DNA from: a virus
Virus record (IMG/VR): IMGVR_UViG_3300030042_000002
Strand: one strand, 5' to 3'
Length of the DNA stretch: 42,078 nt
Positions 10,722-17,825 of the stretch are shown here, in pieces. The notes under the pieces are model-generated. The model did no database searches and was not told where the DNA came from. It saw nothing but the letters and a program-made list of their open reading frames with translations. Each line of letters begins with the position of its first letter. Within the stretch, counting starts at the first letter, position 1. The position numbers and the translations under genes were made by a program.

Positions 10722-11891
10722 TTACGGGCTTGAGTAGTCTGAAAGATAAGCGCGCCAGTATATTTGGCTCGAAACTGTTACAATGGTTGTTTCAGTGATA
10801 ACAGTTGGTGCTCCTGGCCCAATTATGAATCCTTGGCTTGTGTTATTCACAAATGCGCCTTGGATTGCTGGACCGTTGATCGTAGGAGTTGCACCTGGTG
10901 TGTTGCTACCATAAATATTTGGAGCTGGGTATAGCGCTCCGCCTGTATATGGCCATCCACCACTATTAATATCTCCAGCTGCAAATACCTGTGCAAATTT
11001 CAATCCTGGGAATGAAAGAAACGTAGGGTTAGCCACTGAAAATGCAGTGATTGCAGGTGTATAGTTAAATGTAAAACTTGTTGGTGTCGGTGTTGACACA
11101 ACATAGAAATACTGTGGTGATGCAGGAATAGTCACATTAGGAAGTTCATTGAGCTGTTGTGCTCCATAAATTGATGGAATCCTAAATGCAATTTCTTGTC
11201 CTACTACAAAGTTGTGCGCTGCTGTTGTATTAACAGTAACGACACCACCAGTTTGAGTGATTGTCCAAGGAAATGCTACACCTGGCTCATAAAGAGTTGG
11301 GTATAGAATCTGCTTGAATGATGCCAATGTATTCAAACCACCAGTTGTAATAGCAGTTAAATTAGCTGCATTACCTACCCAACCGATTGTAAAGGTTGTA
11401 GTTGAACCTACTGTCAAAACTTCAAAAGGAATGCCAGCTAATGTCTGCATACCTGTAGAAGCTGTTTGATAAAGATTTTGGAAAGTAACCCAGTTTCCAG
11501 GTACAAGTCCGTGTACTGCTGTTGTAGTTACTGTCAAAGTTGTGGAATTTGTTTTAGCAATACCACCTGAACCACCTAGTAAAAAGGTAGGTCCATATTG
11601 AAGCAACTGACCAGCAGAAAAAGAACTAATCCCATTAGATTGGATTACGTCAAAAATTGTTGCAGTCCCAGAGCTATAACCTTCAACCATAGTTGCGTTA
11701 TTGCCTGTAGAAGCATCAAGAAGACGGTTATCCCACCAAGCTCTTGTCAAAAGACTAGCGCCGGATGTTTTAATATTAGTGTAATTCCAAATCTCAACAA
11801 AGTCAGGTTGAAACGGTAAATTAATAACCGCTGCTGTCTGACTAGCCCCTGCTGTGAAATTACCTTTTGCAATTCTTGAATATTCAGCCAT
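10722..11891 (-). CDS. Abundant-type structural protein directly after the capsid gene (possible decoration protein)
   Basis: 389-aa ORF with an AGGAGG SD. Two internal repeats: TAVHGLVPGNWVTF and TAAHNFVVGQEIAF. Confidence 0.7.
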   Translation of the reverse strand: MAEYSRIAKGNFTAGASQTAAVINLPFQPDFVEIWNYTNIKTSGASLLTRAWWDNRLLDASTGNNATMVEGYSSGTATIFDVIQSNGISSFSAGQLLQYGPTFLLGGSGGIAKTNSTTLTVTTTAVHGLVPGNWVTFQNLYQTASTGMQTLAGIPFEVLTVGSTTTFTIGWVGNAANLTAITTGGLNTLASFKQILYPTLYEPGVAFPWTITQTGGVVTVNTTAAHNFVVGQEIAFRIPSIYGAQQLNELPNVTIPASPQYFYVVSTPTPTSFTFNYTPAITAFSVANPTFLSFPGLKFAQVFAAGDINSGGWPYTGGALYPAPNIYGSNTPGATPTINGPAIQGAFVNNTSQGFIIGPGAPTVITETTIVTVSSQIYWRAYLSDYSSP

Positions 11892-11902
11892 GATAAAGCC
11901 TC

Positions 11903-12457
11903 CTAGTAGTTAATTCCACTCAGACGAGTAGAAAGTACGTTCCGGATCGCTGTATCTTGTGTCAAAGCTTGCGCTTGAGCGAACTTAACCGCTAAAGTAG
12001 CATTTTGCGCCAACATACCTGAATAGTATGGATCACGATAAATCAAGTTCATGGAATAACCATCTTGATTAATGTGTGTGATCGCTTGCTTTCCACAAAC
12101 CGTATTGTAATATACGTCTTGACCATTTGCCGAAGCACCGCGAGCTACTGGAGCCTCGGAGCTTGTCAGAATGCGCAAGTTATATACTGAACCCCATTCG
12201 CTCGGCAACGCGCTGGTATTATTTGGATAATTCCAGTTGTTGAATACCCCTTGACCAGTTAATGCGTCAAAATCTGACTGCAATTCAGTCGAAGAAAGCA
12301 TAAAATAGGAACTACGAATAGGCCCCGTGCCGAAGCGATCCATGCCTTCGATACCTGACATGAACTTGTAGGCGTTATTTGAGTCTAGAGTAGTAGCTAC
12401 AAGGCTAAAATCTGCTAGTCCCAAATTTGTTGGATTGTCCGTTCTATTACTTATTGA
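11903..12457 (-). CDS. Major capsid protein, exon 3
   Basis: The frame is open from 12457 (SISNRTDNPTNLGLADF...) to the stop at 11903. It follows the predicted 3' splice site after UUAAG. Confidence 0.65.
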   Translation of the reverse strand, partial: SISNRTDNPTNLGLADFSLVATTLDSNNAYKFMSGIEGMDRFGTGPIRSSYFMLSSTELQSDFDALTGQGVFNNWNYPNNTSALPSEWGSVYNLRILTSSEAPVARGASANGQDVYYNTVCGKQAITHINQDGYSMNLIYRDPYYSGMLAQNATLAVKFAQAQALTQDTAIRNVLSTRLSGINY

Positions 12458-12482
12458 CTTAAATAACCCTACAAACTACAAT
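12454..12482 (+). promoter_or_regulatory. Near-consensus sigma70-type promoter for the LAGLIDADG gene
   Basis: TTGACT (12454-12459), 17-nt spacer, TACAAT (12477-12482). The ATG is 7 nt after the -10 and has no SD. Confidence 0.5.
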
Positions 12483-13601
12483 ATGTAGCATGTACAATTC
12501 TACCGATCTTGCCTACACAGCTGGTTATATTGACGGAGATGGATGCTTTCACCTTAGAAAACAAGTTTTTAAAGGGAATAAGCGTCCTAAATATTCCGCC
12601 AAACTGATTATTTCTTCTGTTAATCCCGACGTTCTCCATTGGTTTAAGAAAACCTTTGGAGGTGTTGTTCGAGAAGTCAAAAGAAAATCTCTGCCCGACG
12701 GACATAAACGTCAGTACCATTTTATATTTGATAATAAGTCTTTCAAAGATTTTTCTACCGAGTTGACCAATATTTATTTGGTTGAGAAACGTGTAGAATC
12801 TGCTTGGTTTAGTAATTTTCTTTGCTGCAAATTTATTGAGGACAAAGAAAGTTGTATTGATGAACTTCAAAAAGAAAAGCATAAATTTGGTCTTGTACTG
12901 CCTTCTCAAAAGATAGAATTTGAAGATAGGAGAAACACTATCAAATTTACCGAATTGGATCTTGCCTACCTTGCTGGTTTTATTGATGCTGAATGCTGTC
13001 TCGGCATTCAACGTTACAAACCAAAAAAAAGACCTAATCACACTTATAAAATTCAACTTCAATGCAATAATACTAAATATCCATTCTTTAAATGGGCTCT
13101 TGAAAGATTTGGAGGGCAAATTCACTTTATAGAAAGACAAAAATCTATGGGACAAAGAGATCAACTTTGCTGGCGTCTCTCTGCTAAAGCTCTTCTGCCA
13201 ATTCTTAAAGGAATTCAACCTTATATCAAACATAAACTTCCAGTTTGTGAGGAACTTATTAAATTCTACAAAACAACTGTTCCTCTCAAAAATACGATAA
13301 GTAGAAATAGTCCGCATTTCGCAGAATATTACCGTCCTATCCTTGAAGAGAGAGAGAGCATTTTTCATAAAATCCAAATCCTAAACAAAAAAGGTATTTA
13401 ATTTAAGCGGGTCGGTCTTCTCAGCCGACCTCTCTATGTTTCCATAGAGTCTAGAGCACCGCATCACACTTTCGTGTGTCTTTCCGCTTGCTACGTTCAC
13501 GCTGCAAGAGCATATTGCTCAGCTTGCGCCTTGTTGTCTTCACCATTACGTGGTAAGAGTTTCAAGTCCATCAGGAAAGATTTTACAACGGCAATAAGTC
13601 T
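12458..13601 (-). mobile_element. Group I-like intron 2 of the capsid gene (1144 nt), carrying an antisense LAGLIDADG gene
   Basis: IGS GCCGUU (13592-13587) pairs with the exon 2 end AACGGU. ACUUAUU pairs with exon 3 AAUAAGU. GAAA-capped hairpins lie at 13432-13449 and 13465-13478. The core is shared with intron 1, and the intron ends UUAAG. Confidence 0.65.
12490..13401 (+). CDS. Double-motif LAGLIDADG homing endonuclease
   Basis: 303 aa with LAYTAGYIDGDGCF near the N-terminus and LAYLAGFIDAECCL mid-protein. Confidence 0.85.
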   Translation: MYNSTDLAYTAGYIDGDGCFHLRKQVFKGNKRPKYSAKLIISSVNPDVLHWFKKTFGGVVREVKRKSLPDGHKRQYHFIFDNKSFKDFSTELTNIYLVEKRVESAWFSNFLCCKFIEDKESCIDELQKEKHKFGLVLPSQKIEFEDRRNTIKFTELDLAYLAGFIDAECCLGIQRYKPKKRPNHTYKIQLQCNNTKYPFFKWALERFGGQIHFIERQKSMGQRDQLCWRLSAKALLPILKGIQPYIKHKLPVCEELIKFYKTTVPLKNTISRNSPHFAEYYRPILEERESIFHKIQILNKKGI

Positions 13602-13947
13602 ACCGTTGGACCCCGCACCTGCCATAAGCTGGCTTGCAGCAGAAACGATATAATCGCGCAAAATCAAATCTTCAGCTTGCCTCATGGCAACTGCTAAACG
13701 CTCTGACACCCACGCTAAAACACCTTCTTGGTCTTGTAATATCACTTGTTCGTTGATGATACAACCTGTGCCAAAGAAAGCCATCTGAGCATCGATAATA
13801 TCGCGCTGTGGGACCTGTGCAGGAGGGTCAATACCGCTGTTACCTAATTGTACGGTAGGCGGTTGTAGTGCGCGTGGGCGCATAAAGCGACATGTAGTTC
13901 CGCCATTTGCAGGCATACTAATTTTGTCACAAATCGTAATATAATTC
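13602..13947 (-). CDS. Major capsid protein, exon 2
   Basis: (M)NYITICDKISMPANGGTTCRFMRPRALQPP...AGAGSNG, in frame with exons 1 and 3 under the P1/P10 model. Confidence 0.65.
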
Positions 13948-14196
13948 CTTAATGTTAAGTTACTTACGTAACTGCCTAGTCATTTCTGCTAGACTCTCTA
14001 TGTTTCCATAGAGTTCAGAGCACCGCATCAACTTATTTAAGCTGTCTCTTCGCTTGCTACGTTCACGCTGCACAGTTTCCTTGCTTGCGCCTTGTTGCCT
14101 TCAACTTCACTTGGTCAGGGTTTCAAGTCCATCAGAAGAGATTTTACAACCACAAATTACTTGCACATAAAACATAGATGCAATATAGTTAGGCAT
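13948..14196 (-). ncRNA. Group I-like intron 1 of the capsid gene (249 nt, no ORF)
   Basis: IGS UAAUUUGUGGUU (14159-14148) is complementary to the ligated junction AACCAU|GAAUUA. A GAAA hairpin lies at 13996-14013 and a GUAA hairpin at 13958-13973. The intron ends UUAAG. Confidence 0.65.
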
Positions 14197-14282
14197 ATGG
14201 TTGGGGTTGGAACATATAACATAGCCGGCGCAAGTGATTGCAGGATAAGTGGTCCCAAATTCCCTGTAGTCGTAATCGACAT
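14197..14282 (-). CDS. Major capsid protein, exon 1
   Basis: The ATG at 14282 is preceded by GAGGT. Sequence MSITTTGNLGPLILQSLAPAMLYVPTPT plus 2 nt. An in-frame stop 41 nt downstream of the predicted splice site ends any unspliced reading. Confidence 0.65.
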
Positions 14283-14442
14283 TATTACCTCGAAATTGAG
14301 GTTCTTATGATGTGGTGAACCGCGGACGAACGTACTACGTCCATTCTCATTCACATCTTGATGAAAGGTGCGATACTTTCTAACGCGACAACTATTAACG
14401 TATAGCTAAACGAAATTTTAATTTAACACATAAAGGTTTTAT

Positions 14443-15105
14443 ATGGCACCAAAAAAAACACATGGAATGTCTTATACAGAAGAATACGCATGTTGGAGAT
14501 CTTTGAAAAATAGATGTCTTAATGCAAAAAACGCCCAGTATAAAGATTATGGAGGCCGAGGTATTACAATTTGTGAAAGATGGTTAAAATTTGAGAATTT
14601 CTTCGAGGATATGGGTAATCGTCCTAAAGATTGTGAAATTGATCGCATCAATAATGAACAGGGTTATTGCAAAGAAAATTGTCGATGGACAACTAAAAAG
14701 GTGAATGCTCGAAATAGGCGTTCTACTAAAAAACACAAAGTTGACACAAGTGAACTTGTTCAACAAGAACTTTTGGAAAAGATAGGCTGGACAAAGAATC
14801 AATTCCGATGGTTTTTTAAACGTTATGGCATTGAATGGATATTAGACAATTTTAAAAAGGGAACATTGCCAGAAAAATCAAACATTTCAGTAGATAAAGA
14901 TGAGGTTATAGGAAAACAGTTTGGTAAATGGTTTGTGTTAAACTTTATTTCCTACATTCGAGGTGAAGGTAATAGATATTTATGTCGTTGTGAATGCGGT
15001 TTTGAAAAGGAAGTTGTGGGCTATTATTTGCGATCAGGAAAAAGTACAGGATGCCGTCGATGTGCATATAAGAACCAGGTAAATAAACCCATGCCAAAGA
15101 AGTAA
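14443..15105 (+). CDS. Phage DNA-binding / homing-endonuclease-like protein (YGGRGI...CERW...DRINN...NCRW family) with a C-terminal Cys4 ribbon
   Basis: 220 aa. Motifs YACWRSLKNRC, YGGRGITICERW, IDRINNEQGYCKENCRWTT, CRCECG...CRRC. Confidence 0.6.
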   Translation: MAPKKTHGMSYTEEYACWRSLKNRCLNAKNAQYKDYGGRGITICERWLKFENFFEDMGNRPKDCEIDRINNEQGYCKENCRWTTKKVNARNRRSTKKHKVDTSELVQQELLEKIGWTKNQFRWFFKRYGIEWILDNFKKGTLPEKSNISVDKDEVIGKQFGKWFVLNFISYIRGEGNRYLCRCECGFEKEVVGYYLRSGKSTGCRRCAYKNQVNKPMPKK

Positions 15106-15130
15106 TCTACTATCAACACATTTCTTTTCT

Positions 15131-15158
15131 TTAACATAAAGTTATAAAATGTTATCAT
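15131..15158 (+). promoter_or_regulatory. Candidate promoter for the Y-RNA array
   Basis: TTAACA, 16-nt spacer, TATCAT, ending 13 nt before module 1. Confidence 0.3.
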
Positions 15159-15171
15159 CTTCACTTAGCTT

Positions 15172-15306
15172 GCTTGCCGTAGATAAGAGTTACTTCGACT
15201 TGTAATCGAGCGGTCATTGGTTCGAGTCCAATATAATGCAGGGTTAGTCCTTGGATTGTTAGCTCAGTTGGTAGAGCGCTAAATTTCTCTTGTCGTTTGT
15301 TGCAGT
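15172..15306 (+). ncRNA. Y-RNA-like module 1 (YrlA-like, with tRNA-like domain)
   Basis: Lower stem GCT[T]GC/GCAGT and helix GATAAGAG/CTCTTGTC. T-arm at 15216-15232 (loop TTCGAGT), a closed hairpin, then D-arm GCTC-AGTTGGTA-GAGC at 15262-15277. Confidence 0.65.
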
Positions 15307-15320
15307 AAGTTAACTTGTTT

Positions 15321-15424
15321 TGCTTGGCGTAGAATTGAGATACTTGGTGACATTGCTGTAAAAGGCAATGTCGGTTCGAATCCGATAGCCCGAAAGGGTG
15401 AAACTCAATTCGTTTGTTCCTGCA
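15321..15424 (+). ncRNA. Y-RNA-like module 2 (partial tRNA mimic)
   Basis: Helix GAATTGAG/CTCAATTC. An 8-bp hairpin GACATTGC/GCAATGTC, a T-arm at 15370-15386 (TTCGAAT) and a GAAA-capped hairpin at 15388-15399. No D-arm. Confidence 0.55.
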
Positions 15425-15430
15425 TATTAT

Positions 15431-15503
15431 CGCGCGATAGAGCAGTGGTTAGCTCATTTGGCTCATAATCAAAAGGTCGAAGGTTCGAATCCTTCTCGCG
15501 CTA
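15431..15503 (+). tRNA. tRNA with CAT anticodon (Met or Ile2), embedded in the Y-RNA array
   Basis: Cloverleaf with D-arm GAGC/GCTC, anticodon loop CTCATAA and T-arm GAAGG-TTCGAAT-CCTTC. The acceptor has a C1-U72 mismatch. No encoded CCA. Confidence 0.8.
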
Positions 15504-15508
15504 TTTGT

Positions 15509-15623
15509 CCTTGCCGTAGTTGAGGGTTACTTTGAGTAACATCATATATAAGTTCGAATCTTATTAGATTCTTCGGAATCTATAGGCTAATTGGTAAGCC
15601 AGCCCCTTAATGATTGTTGCAGG
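15509..15623 (+). ncRNA. Y-RNA-like module 3 (YrlA-like, with tRNA-like domain)
   Basis: Lower stem CCT[T]GC/GCAGG and helix GTTGAGGG/CCCTTAAT. T-arm at 15548-15564, a 7-bp UUCG-capped hairpin at 15565-15582 and a D-arm at 15585-15600. Confidence 0.65.
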
Positions 15624-15634
15624 ACTTTTACTTT

Positions 15635-15752
15635 GTCCGTGTTGGATGATGACGGTTACTTAGTGGTGACTTTCAGTTACCGAGTGCAAGCCTAAAGCTT
15701 GCACCTCGCGCCATATGCGAGGTCTAATACCCGTTATTAAATGTTACCGGAC
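15635..15752 (+). ncRNA. Y-RNA-like module 4 (no tRNA mimic)
   Basis: Lower stem GTCCG/CGGAC and helix GATGACGG/CCGTTATT. The interior folds into three unrelated hairpins. Confidence 0.5.
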
Positions 15753-15761
15753 TTTTGTTTT

Positions 15762-15890
15762 GCCTATGTTGTAGATAAGAGTTACTTAGCTTGCAAAGCC
15801 CCGGATCATGGGTTCAAATCCCATCGCCCTTTCGAGGGTGTAGCTTAGTGTTTAAAGCGGGGACCGTTCTCTTATCGTTTGTTACTAGGC
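15762..15890 (+). ncRNA. Y-RNA-like module 5 (YrlA-like, with tRNA-like domain)
   Basis: Lower stem GCCTA/TAGGC and helix GATAAGAG/CTCTTATC. T-arm at 15808-15824, a UUCG-capped hairpin at 15825-15840 and a D-arm at 15843-15858. Closing helix CCCC/GGGG. Confidence 0.65.
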
Positions 15891-15904
15891 TTTTTGTTTC
15901 TTAA

Positions 15905-15970
15905 CCTTAGTGTAGATTGCAGTTACTTTGATTTGCATTCAAAAACATACCTGCGATCGTTTGTTCTAGG
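15905..15970 (+). ncRNA. Y-RNA-like module 6 (minimal stem module overlapping the rsr ribosome-binding site)
   Basis: Lower stem CCT[T]AG/CTAGG and helix GATTGCAG/CTGCGATC with a simple loop. The 3' strand CTAGG overlaps the SD AGGTGA of the Ro60 gene. Confidence 0.5.
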
Positions 15971-15977
15971 TGATTTT

Positions 15978-17312
15978 ATGAAAGTTAATGTTCAAAAGAG
16001 TGTTTTCACTCATCAAGGCGGAAAGGCTGTAGAAGTCAACGCCTACGAGCGCTTAAAGCGTACTATCATGGCTTGCATGCTTTTTGAAGATAATTTTTAC
16101 GAGGAAGGCGTTAAGGCGGCTGATAGAATTGCAGAATTATCAAAGCAATGTACTACAGATCAAATATGTACTTTAGCCTTAGAAGCCGCCACAAAATATC
16201 ATCTTAGGCATATTCCTTTACAAATGATTGTCGAAGCATTAGCGAAGAGAGATCATGGTAATGGAACACATATTATTTCAAATATAATTAATAAAATCAT
16301 CACTCGCCCTGACATGATGACCGACCTTTTAGCTTTGTATTGGAAATCAGGGAAAAAACCTCTTTCAAATCAACTTAAACGCGGCCTAGCAAAGGCATTT
16401 ACTAAATTCGATGAATACCAGTTATCTAAGTATAACCGTGATAATCCTATCAAATTGCGCGATGTCCTTTTTCTTTGCCACGCCAAACCTAAAGATGCAG
16501 ATCAAGCCGAATTATGGAAGCGCTTAATCAATAAAACGCTTAAGACTGCCGACACTTGGGAAACTCGTTTGTCTGCTGGAGAAGATAAGAAAGAATCGTT
16601 CCAAGAACTGCTTTTTAAAGGTAAAATGGGCAAACTTGCAATTCTTCGCAATATGCGGAATATGCAGCAAGCGGGTATCGCTAAAGAAGCCGTCGCGTTT
16701 GAACTTATGCGTAATATGAAAGAAATGTTACCTTTTCAATATCTTGCCGCTGCTCGAGAATGCCCTCAATGGGAAGATATCATAGATCCTGCAATGGTGG
16801 CTTCTGCTTCGTTTAAACCTAAGATTGAAGGCAAAACATTCATCCTTGTTGATGTATCCGGTAGTATGGTTTATCCTTTATCTGCTAAGTCTACTATGAC
16901 ACGTATGGATGCGGCCGCAGGATTAGCAATCTTACTACGCGAGTGCTGTAATGATTGCGAATTCTACACTTTTAGTGAAAGATTTGTGCCAATTCCTAAG
17001 CGTCACGGAATGGGATTACGTGATGTAATTAAATCATCTCAACCTAATCAAGGTACATATTTAGGCAATGCACTTAATCACATCATCAAATCAGGTGCTA
17101 AGTGGGATCGTCTTATCGTCATTACCGATGAACAGACAGCCGACAACATTCCTAATATGCCCATGGGTAAAAATTACATCCTTAACATTGGCAACTATCA
17201 AAATGGCATTGGAAATAAGAACCAATGGACGACTATTTCAGGGTTTAGTGAGGCATCAATAGATTTTATCAGGGAATATGAAGCAAGCACAGAAGCCAAA
17301 AAAGAAGATTAA
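15978..17312 (+). CDS. rsr: Ro60/Rsr orthologue (TROVE domain + vWA domain)
   Basis: MKVNVQKSVFTHQGGKAVEV start after the SD AGGTGA. TROVE-like motifs (KYNRDNPIKLRDVLFLCHAKP, ADTWETRLS, LAILRNMRNM) and a vWA MIDAS motif ILVDVSGSM. The track's TTG extension to 15879 overlaps the RNA modules and was not used. Confidence 0.85.
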   Translation: MKVNVQKSVFTHQGGKAVEVNAYERLKRTIMACMLFEDNFYEEGVKAADRIAELSKQCTTDQICTLALEAATKYHLRHIPLQMIVEALAKRDHGNGTHIISNIINKIITRPDMMTDLLALYWKSGKKPLSNQLKRGLAKAFTKFDEYQLSKYNRDNPIKLRDVLFLCHAKPKDADQAELWKRLINKTLKTADTWETRLSAGEDKKESFQELLFKGKMGKLAILRNMRNMQQAGIAKEAVAFELMRNMKEMLPFQYLAAARECPQWEDIIDPAMVASASFKPKIEGKTFILVDVSGSMVYPLSAKSTMTRMDAAAGLAILLRECCNDCEFYTFSERFVPIPKRHGMGLRDVIKSSQPNQGTYLGNALNHIIKSGAKWDRLIVITDEQTADNIPNMPMGKNYILNIGNYQNGIGNKNQWTTISGFSEASIDFIREYEASTEAKKED

Positions 17313-17749: not shown

Positions 17750-17822
17750 GCCCGTTTAACTCAGTGGCTAGAGTAGTGGTTTTGTAAACCAAAGGTCAGG
17801 GGTTCGAATCCCTTAACGGGCA
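17750..17822 (+). tRNA. tRNA-Thr (TGT)
   Basis: Acceptor GCCCGTT/AACGGGC, anticodon loop TTTGTAA, T-arm AGGGG-TTCGAAT-CCCTT. Confidence 0.85.
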
Positions 17823-17825
17823 TAT

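Follow-up and report, generated by a model that had tools for sequence, protein, structure and literature searches.

Organization of the interrupted capsid gene

The virus record IMGVR_UViG_3300030042_000002 comprises 42,078 nt (the whole stretch that was analysed, hereafter the window) and carries on its minus strand a major capsid protein gene in three pieces. Two introns separate these pieces, and the second of them harbours a homing endonuclease gene on the opposite strand; this intron and its antisense gene are the subject of the present analysis. The limits of the pieces were set by alignment with intron-less relatives, found among many ~40-kb phage loci of IMG/VR, most of which have an uninterrupted capsid gene. 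Exon 1 (14282–14197, with its ATG at 14282–14280), exon 2 (13947–13602) and exon 3 (12439–11903, stop codon included) are separated by intron 1 (14196–13948, 249 nt), which contains no open reading frame (ORF), and by intron 2 (13601–12440, 1162 nt) of the same family, all on the minus strand. Conceptual splicing gave 969 nt encoding 322 aa, with 93% identity and no gaps relative to the intron-less 322-aa protein of locus L002. Both introns follow an exon U and end in G (G13948 and G12440), and their excision restores the reading frame. An intein or a split gene was ruled out by stops in the exon frame of the insert and by a conserved ribozyme core.

Introns of this kind occupy the capsid genes of relatives unevenly. 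Most capsid alleles have no intron, ORF-less introns occur at the intron-2 site in L048 and L027, and the same intron with the endonuclease gene is found at the same site in capsids that are only 35–45% identical. A single related capsid gene can hold as many as four introns, all of one family but differently placed (four cores in L083, three each in L011 and L048, and others in loci such as L014, L019 and L027), and cores of the same family also lie ~5 kb upstream of the capsid gene, in other genes (L054:162–319, L054:480–626 and L051:1052–1209). Megablast against GenBank phages gave no match, and tblastn against them gave only one remote capsid match and remote actinophage LAGLIDADG genes.

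Ribozyme core of intron 2

The exon sequence AACGGU (13607–13602) preceding intron 2 pairs with an internal guide sequence (IGS) GCCGUU (13592–13587), and its last base, U13602, forms the U·G wobble of P1 at the splice site. At intron 1 the exon sequence AACCAU pairs with the IGS GUGGUU, so that exon and guide sequence vary together from one intron to the other. Introns at the same site in L048 and L081–L085 retain the IGS GCCGUU.

An iterated nhmmer search seeded with both window cores yielded 86 core matches, which lay on the capsid-sense strand in every locus fetched via the capsid gene (L001–L080). Forty contiguous cores were aligned. RNAalifold recovered P3, P4, P5, P6 and P8 from this alignment; with the P7 pseudoknot added, 96.6% of the cells were paired, and compensatory changes were seen in 23 of 27 pairs. 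None of 500 shuffles matched the observed values, and slid controls reached 37–47% pairing. On this alignment the core of intron 2 (13402–13601, minus strand, 200 nt) lacks P2 and consists of P3 (13580–74/13485–79), P4, P5 and P6, P7 (13494–89/13458–54, forming a pseudoknot with P3) and P8 (13478–65); the core coordinates further place P9 at 13449–32, P9.1 at 13430–10 and the 5′ strand of P9.2, GCUUAAAU, at 13408–01. By sequence and covariation, then, the intervening sequence is a group I intron of canonical topology in a compact form, and it would be expected to splice itself. An earlier reading made from the letters of the window alone (the sequence-only reading) had taken the insert for an intron; colinearity with intron-less homologues, the U·G pair, the terminal G and the covariation of the core all agree with it.

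P9.2 and the 3′ splice site

The 3′ splice site was placed with a set of 12 homologous introns carrying the same endonuclease family (44–77% protein identity), collected from IMG/VR and from contigs of the closest proteins. All 12 end ...AGUAAUAGnnnnG/GAC (a slash marks the junction). In the window, only the junction 12440/12439 gives the protein ...SNG/DNPTNLG..., which is colinear without gaps with the 322-aa intron-less homologue, and it leaves U as the last base of the exon and G as the last base of the intron.

The 3′ strand of P9.2 (AUUUAAGU, 12464–12457) and a conserved tail, GUCAAUAAGUAAUAGAACG, together form the last 25 nt of the intron (12440–12464, minus strand), up to the terminal G. 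P9.2 encloses a loop of ~940 nt that carries the antisense endonuclease ORF. Its pairing covaries in L089, L084, L082, L083 and L085 (AAGA/UCUU, AAAG/CUUU, ACGG/CCGU and CUGUA/UACAG), and a short hairpin occupies this position in the family's ORF-less introns. The tail motif, GUCAn(n)AAGUAA(C/U)AG...G/, is present in the ORF-less introns as well. The sequence-only reading had put the boundary between intron and exon 3 at 12457/12458, 18 nt away from the junction found here, and had accordingly described a promoter whose -35 hexamer straddles the splice site. That hexamer (12454–12459) is wholly intronic, 14–19 nt inside the intron, and shares bases both with the last three pairs of P9.2 and with the GUCAA that is conserved in the tail.

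The antisense LAGLIDADG endonuclease gene

The terminal loop of P9.2 is filled by a plus-strand gene (12490–13401, 303 aa), antisense to intron 2, for a double-motif (monomeric) LAGLIDADG homing endonuclease. The protein matched Pfam LAGLIDADG_1 (PF00961) with 34.5 bits against a cut-off of 23.1, and both of its halves matched I-CreI and I-MsoI by sequence. The two motifs are LAYTAGYIDGDG, with the acidic residue D17, and LAYLAGFIDAEC, with the acidic residue E168; both residues were invariant among 6 homologues and at least 90% conserved among 65. AlphaFold supplied with a 65-sequence alignment gave a model with a predicted local distance difference test (pLDDT) of 94 and a predicted template modelling score (pTM) of 0.91, and a single-sequence run was uninformative (pLDDT 40). 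The model matched full-length monomeric or single-chain LAGLIDADG enzymes (scI-MsoI, scI-CreI and the I-OnuI family) with E ~1e-13 and template modelling (TM) scores of 0.6–0.7.

Between homologues, dN/dS was 0.10–0.2, with saturated synonymous sites (dS 1.1–2.2). A large protein database held 419 homologues, and the identical protein occurred on 7 contigs; because the longest of these is 42,092 bp, the window is probably the whole genome of a ~42-kb tailed phage. As judged from sequence comparison, the endonuclease gene is intact and under purifying selection. The Pfam match, the two acidic residues and the fold match bear out the sequence-only description of an intact 303-aa double-motif ORF on the plus strand, and no sign of the degeneracy that would have spoken against it was found at the sequence level. 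Capsid gene and insert both lie on the minus strand, hence the endonuclease cannot be translated from the intron RNA, as had also been stated.

The antisense orientation is not peculiar to the window. Among 33 further family members examined, 30 had a core detected nearby, and in all 30 it lay on the opposite strand from the endonuclease gene. Over the loci examined, LAGLIDADG genes were antisense in 18 cases and sense in 10, so that in this phage group the antisense orientation is no rarer than the sense one. In some relatives the endonuclease gene is found in the P6 loop instead of P9.2, in either orientation, and the antisense families there have strong Shine-Dalgarno sequences.

From its family, the endonuclease is presumed to cut intron-less capsid alleles at the ...AACGGU/GACAAU... 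junction, in an allele such as that of L002 at ...GGGTCCAACGGT/GACAATCCAACA.... Repair of the break would copy the intron in, possibly aided by RecT/RecE-like genes of the phage. RecT-like and RecE-like genes are located at 35355–36203 and 36990–37853 (plus strand) and could support double-strand-break repair in homing.

A candidate promoter and a predicted leaderless start

Directly upstream of the endonuclease gene lies a candidate sigma-70-type promoter (12454–12482, plus strand), composed of a -35 hexamer TTGACT (12454–59), a 17-nt spacer and a -10 hexamer TACAAT (12477–82). Only 7 nt separate the -10 hexamer from the ATG, and there is no Shine-Dalgarno sequence. The match scores 10/12, which is at chance level in the window alone and refers to a sigma-70 consensus that may not be that of the host.

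The layout was nevertheless common to all 12 homologous introns: a -35-like hexamer, 16–18 nt, a -10 hexamer, 6–7 nt and the ATG, without a Shine-Dalgarno sequence (for L081, TGGACT-17-TATATT-6-ATG was taken from the printed sequence and not from the script). The -35 hexamer was TTGACT in seven introns, TGGACT in two, and TCGACT, ATGACT and TTGACC in one each; the -10 hexamers were TACAAT, TATAAT, TATATT, TATTAT, TATTTT, TACACT and CATAAT. Among eight non-redundant members with dissimilar spacers, seven had a TAnnnT ending 6–7 nt 5′ of the ATG, for which a null frequency of 0.089 per sequence gives P ~3e-7 if the members are independent. More distant members, among them a deeper subfamily in another flanking context, likewise have TTGACT-17-TATAAT-7-ATG. 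Neighbouring phage genes carry clear Shine-Dalgarno sequences, as do other antisense endonuclease families in the same introns, in strong form (e.g. AGGAGG). The absence of one here is thus a trait of the cassette or family and not of the host.

The -35 hexamer needs separate treatment. Since the tail motif is present also in ORF-less introns, conservation of this hexamer is not independent evidence for a promoter. On the sequences compared, it looks like a ribozyme motif that was recruited as a -35 element, one stretch of DNA serving both strands. Taking the geometry as a whole, an autonomous promoter with a leaderless or near-leaderless start is rather likely, and transcription is predicted to start at about 12489–12490, at the A of the ATG, giving a leaderless mRNA. 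Of the near-consensus promoter claimed in the sequence-only reading, the hexamers, the spacer and the 7 nt to the ATG stand, the match itself carries no weight beyond chance in the window, and the comparison with related phages that had been proposed as a check shows the geometry to be kept in 12 of 12 homologous introns. The claim that the missing Shine-Dalgarno sequence implies a leaderless mRNA fared similarly: the absence and the 6–7-nt spacing are conserved, and the start itself is a comparative prediction.

Right after the endonuclease stop, a hairpin at 13409–13431 (plus strand), the complement of P9.1 with a weak T-rich tail, was scored as terminator-like. Because every intron of the family, the ORF-less ones included, has this hairpin, its role as a terminator of the antisense transcript is conjectural.

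An open mirror frame on the pre-mRNA strand

Opposite the endonuclease gene, and in exact codon register with it, the minus strand holds an ORF of 302 aa (12469–13377). Counted from a conserved ATG (13368–66) to the stop TAG (12471–69), this mirror frame spans 12469–13368, i.e. 299 codons, and it stops ~5 nt before the 3′ strand of P9.2. For the mirror frame to be open, the endonuclease gene must be without TTA, CTA and TCA, the complements of the stop codons. Openness held for all homologues despite a GC content of 31–35%, and the other two antisense frames were open for only 22–53 codons.

The avoidance followed orientation. In 18 antisense genes of several families the three codons occurred at 5.0 per 1000 codons, as against 56.9 in 10 sense genes from the same intron family, and the other A-ending codons at 120 and 153 per 1000, respectively (Fisher P 8e-28 for the orientation contrast). 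The free-standing HNH endonuclease gene of the window (14443–15105) has stops in its mirror frame. Avoidance was recorded in loci L007, L019, L027, L035, L036, L038, L047, L049, L055, L065, L081–L090 and L103–L143.

The avoidance was also sharply bounded. Among 44 members of the family, the last 12 endonuclease codons contained 27 forbidden codons in 528 (51 per 1000, the neutral level), codons 13–30 from the C-terminus contained none in 792, and the remaining codons contained 9 in 11,795 (0.8 per 1000), all within the first 19 codons. The C-terminal boundary coincides with a conserved His codon whose complement is an in-frame ATG, the one at 13368–13366 in the window. C-terminal His codons were CAT rather than CAC in a ratio of 53:5, compared with 206:71 elsewhere (P 0.003). 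In 23 of 42 members a Shine-Dalgarno-like motif, typically ACCUUUGAGGUUUAAnnnAUG, lies 4–16 nt upstream of the mirror ATG. The amino acid sequence of the frame is poorly kept: its identity was 45% where that of the endonuclease was 72%, and ranged over 28–50% where the endonuclease ranged over 45–73%. From these comparisons it is the openness, and not a protein, that appears to be maintained.

A mirror frame continuous with an exon was considered and rejected for the window, where the frame of exon 2 stops at a TGA (13499–13497) in the core and the mirror frame is not in the frame of exon 3. In L047/L084, L082 and L083 there is no mirror-frame stop ahead of the 3′ splice site. The frame of L047 has 504 open codons and reaches the end of exon 3; in L082 and L083 it apparently enters exon 3 as well, having no stop in the 150 nt beyond the endonuclease ATG that the extracted region covered. 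From unspliced RNA of these relatives a fusion to the C-terminal part of the capsid protein could arise; such cases (3 of 8) are at about chance frequency.

Interpretation

The locus is quite probably a mobile group I intron, compact and without P2, in which an antisense endonuclease cassette has its own promoter and a mirror frame is kept open on the pre-mRNA strand. Host RNA polymerase would transcribe the endonuclease from this promoter, independently of capsid transcription, and the transcript would start at or adjoining the ATG and be translated as a leaderless mRNA. Only ribosomes read frames, and we therefore infer that translation of the pre-mRNA continues over the backwards gene and that stopping early within it does harm. 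What selection would preserve is the transit of ribosomes over the ~0.9-kb insert. Such transit might protect the RNA from Rho-type polarity or RNases, keep the insert from mispairing with the ribozyme, or prevent a duplex with the endonuclease mRNA. As regards polarity, a limited check of ten ORFs against PHROGs revealed no phage RNA polymerase.

Several results weigh against this reading. Neither intron gave an Rfam match to group I introns (Intron_gpI) over 11800–16000, at the gathering threshold or at E up to 10, and the structural case was for this reason built from relatives; the family, being compact and without P2, appears to lie outside the coverage of the Rfam model. Relatives of the capsid gene in GTDB genomes (L091–L101) were found only on contigs of metagenome-assembled genomes from mutually incompatible phyla, archaea included, with labels such as Legionellaceae, Chlamydiia, Patescibacteria, Bacteroidales, Nitrosopumilaceae and Methanobacterium. 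These are almost certainly phage contigs mis-binned into unrelated genomes; they identify neither the host nor, with it, its promoter type. A promoter scan of the window found 25 promoter-like sites in 10 kb where 28.8 were expected, five of them scoring 10/12. The -35 hexamer TTGACT is the reverse complement of AGUCAA, and ORF-less introns carry GGUCAA, GGUCAU or GGUCAC at that place. One gene, L081b, is an exception to the avoidance and contributes 9 of the 20 forbidden codons of the antisense set. The Shine-Dalgarno-like motif before the mirror ATG is confined to the 23 of 42 members mentioned above, and the window has a weak AGGA 12 nt off. GC skew shows no C-rich, G-poor sense RNA of the composition expected of a strong Rho substrate. 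Finally, the antisense gene gp14 in the capsid intron of mycobacteriophage LittleE has two stops in its mirror frame, so that avoidance there is incomplete, a case that is uninformative at 58% GC.

The scan and the ORF-less introns also furnish the case for a different account of the hexamers, in which they are not a promoter but reflect constraints on the intron RNA (the 3′ tail and P9.2) or AT-rich composition, and the endonuclease is expressed otherwise or hardly at all. Constraint on the tail would partly explain the -35 hexamer, but the -10 hexamer lies in a segment that is absent from ORF-less introns, and the spacer is unconserved, yet TAnnnT recurs 6–7 nt from the ATG; the deeper subfamily repeats the arrangement in its different context. 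Strong purifying selection on the protein requires expression, and ~4 kb upstream on the plus strand holds minus-strand genes only. We consider this account unlikely. There is still less chance that the endonuclease gene is a decaying passenger of an element that no longer homes, its arrangement a frozen accident. Homing endonuclease genes commonly degenerate after fixation, and ORF-less introns do occur at the same site; the ORF of the window, however, is intact with both catalytic acidic residues, dN/dS is 0.1–0.2, the identical protein recurs on 7 contigs among 419 homologues, and the same intron and gene occupy the same site in strongly diverged capsids.

Two further accounts concern the mirror frame. 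It might encode a functional protein of its own, e.g. a maturase-like or regulatory factor, and not be a mere track for ribosomes. The sharp bounds, the conserved ATG and the length of ~300 codons in 44 of 44 members would suit a protein, as would the good Shine-Dalgarno sequence of some members. Against it, substitution has reached saturation at the first codon positions of the mirror frame, where the synonymous sites of the endonuclease fall, mirror identity is lower than that of the endonuclease, and several unrelated endonuclease families are equally open, so that several unrelated mirror proteins would be needed; a mirror protein is accordingly very improbable. The avoidance of TTA, CTA and TCA might instead arise from translation of the endonuclease itself, e.g. 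if certain tRNAs are in short supply at the beginning of infection. The three codons have in common that U34-containing tRNAs decode them, and antisense genes may be expressed at another time than sense ones. But there is no restriction on other A-ending codons, the tRNAs encoded by the phage itself are for Met, Thr, Gln, Met and Asp, and in phage structural genes TTA makes up 26% of the Leu codons and TCA 30% of the Ser codons. The return of the three codons to the neutral rate in the last 12 codons is difficult to reconcile with tRNA supply and readily fits a frame starting at the mirror ATG. On the phage tRNA set, the orientation contrast and the bounded zone, we rejected tRNA supply as the explanation, which we hold to be extremely improbable.

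With a promoter-driven antisense cassette and a kept-open mirror frame as the preferred reading, the data point to an accommodation between the two strands, in the form of a maintained open frame on the pre-mRNA. The interference with splicing or capsid expression that the sequence-only reading had envisaged is speculative. We put forward tentatively, with the balance leaning slightly towards doubt, a more general statement: in bacterial and phage group I introns with a backwards endonuclease gene, selection keeps a full-length mirror frame with its own ATG and often a Shine-Dalgarno sequence, the encoded sequence being irrelevant and transit being the function. In sense-oriented introns the endonuclease ORF itself supplies the frame on the pre-mRNA, and the common rule would be an ORF across long inserts. 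If true, this would define a new class of overlapping ORF that is indifferent to its sequence, and long intron inserts under coupled transcription and translation would have to be translated.

Group I introns made mobile by homing endonucleases are familiar, and there is one published case of such a gene lying antisense within a phage capsid intron. New here are the signs, from comparison of relatives, of a promoter dedicated to the endonuclease and giving a leaderless start, partly the complement of a conserved ribozyme tail motif, and the orientation-specific, sharply bounded avoidance of stop-complement codons in several unrelated families and in 44 of 44 members of this one, which suggests that ribosomes read the pre-mRNA strand over the backwards gene. 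In the literature, of which our coverage was incomplete, we came across no account of stop codons being avoided opposite endonuclease genes in antisense orientation. The arrangement offers a handle on how highly expressed genes of bacteria and phages tolerate long non-coding inserts, with respect to polarity, RNA folding and double-stranded RNA. It is also a warning for annotation: a "hypothetical protein" of ~300 aa opposite such a gene would be a maintained frame and probably not a conventional protein.

Neighbouring genes

The free-standing HNH endonuclease gene (14443–15105, plus strand; PHROG 374, E 2e-47) is encoded on the strand opposite to the capsid gene, some 160 nt upstream of its start and ~250 nt from the ORF-less intron 1. 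A homologue is present in four relatives (L006, L020, L032 and L053), all four of which have an ORF-less intron between exon 1 and exon 2; most loci have neither. The pattern recalls "collaborative homing", in which an intron insertion site is the target of a free-standing endonuclease.

Five tRNA genes (Met, Thr-UGU, Gln-UUG, Met and Asp) were located at 17750–18059 and 15430–15504 on the plus strand. Two sub-threshold matches to YrlA (bacterial Y RNA-like) at 15168–15387 and 15786–15891 (plus strand; 28–29 bits, E 0.002–0.005) flank a tRNA-Met, and the ORF that they precede (15879–17312, plus strand) has TROVE and Ro60 vWA domains. A gene for a Ro60-like protein may thus be accompanied in this phage by Y-like RNAs of its own.

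Comparison with known systems

The closest precedent is mycobacteriophage LittleE, whose capsid gene contains a group I intron with the LAGLIDADG-type gene gp14 on the bottom strand (Pope et al. 2013, PMC3706429; GenBank annotation); splicing of this intron was shown by RT-PCR (PMC3706429). As in the window, the major capsid gene is interrupted after an exon U by a group I intron that has a terminal G and carries a LAGLIDADG-type gene on the opposite strand. The LittleE intron nevertheless belongs to another lineage, which the core model built here does not detect, and gp14, from a genome of high GC content, has 177 aa with one motif and an HNH-like tail; no promoter or leaderless layout has been described for it. 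A review of bacterial group I introns (PMC3984707) makes no mention of an antisense arrangement.

I-DirII, in a nuclear rDNA group I intron of Didymium iridis, is likewise an antisense gene with its own promoter (Johansen et al. 2006, as reported in PMC3073962). It differs from the window gene in being eukaryotic, in its His-Cys box, Pol II promoter, spliceosomal intron and polyadenylation, and in its host gene, which is an rRNA gene, so that the sense strand is not translated as it is for a capsid gene. Together with the 18 antisense against 10 sense genes counted here, LittleE and I-DirII make the statement of the sequence-only reading that intron-borne endonuclease genes are normally sense-oriented in phage introns an overstatement.

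The protein resembles I-OnuI, I-SmaMI, I-LtrWI and single-chain I-CreI and I-MsoI over the full length of the fold (TM 0.6–0.7, E 1e-11 to 1e-13), and like the solved monomeric enzymes it has two LAGLIDADG helices, each ending in an acidic residue. These solved relatives share only 14–18% sequence identity with it, are organellar and are encoded in the sense orientation.

The td, nrdB and nrdD (sunY) introns of phage T4, with I-TevI, I-TevII and I-TevIII, are also mobile group I introns in phage protein genes with an ORF in a peripheral loop. Internal promoters drive T4 intron endonucleases, e.g. I-TevI. According to work cited in the review of bacterial introns, splicing of T4 introns depends on translation of the pre-mRNA (Semrad & Schroeder 1998; Sandegren & Sjöberg 2007, cited in PMC3984707). 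Unlike the gene of the window, the T4 intron ORFs are sense-oriented members of the GIY-YIG and HNH families, which are read from the intron strand, and there no second frame is needed.

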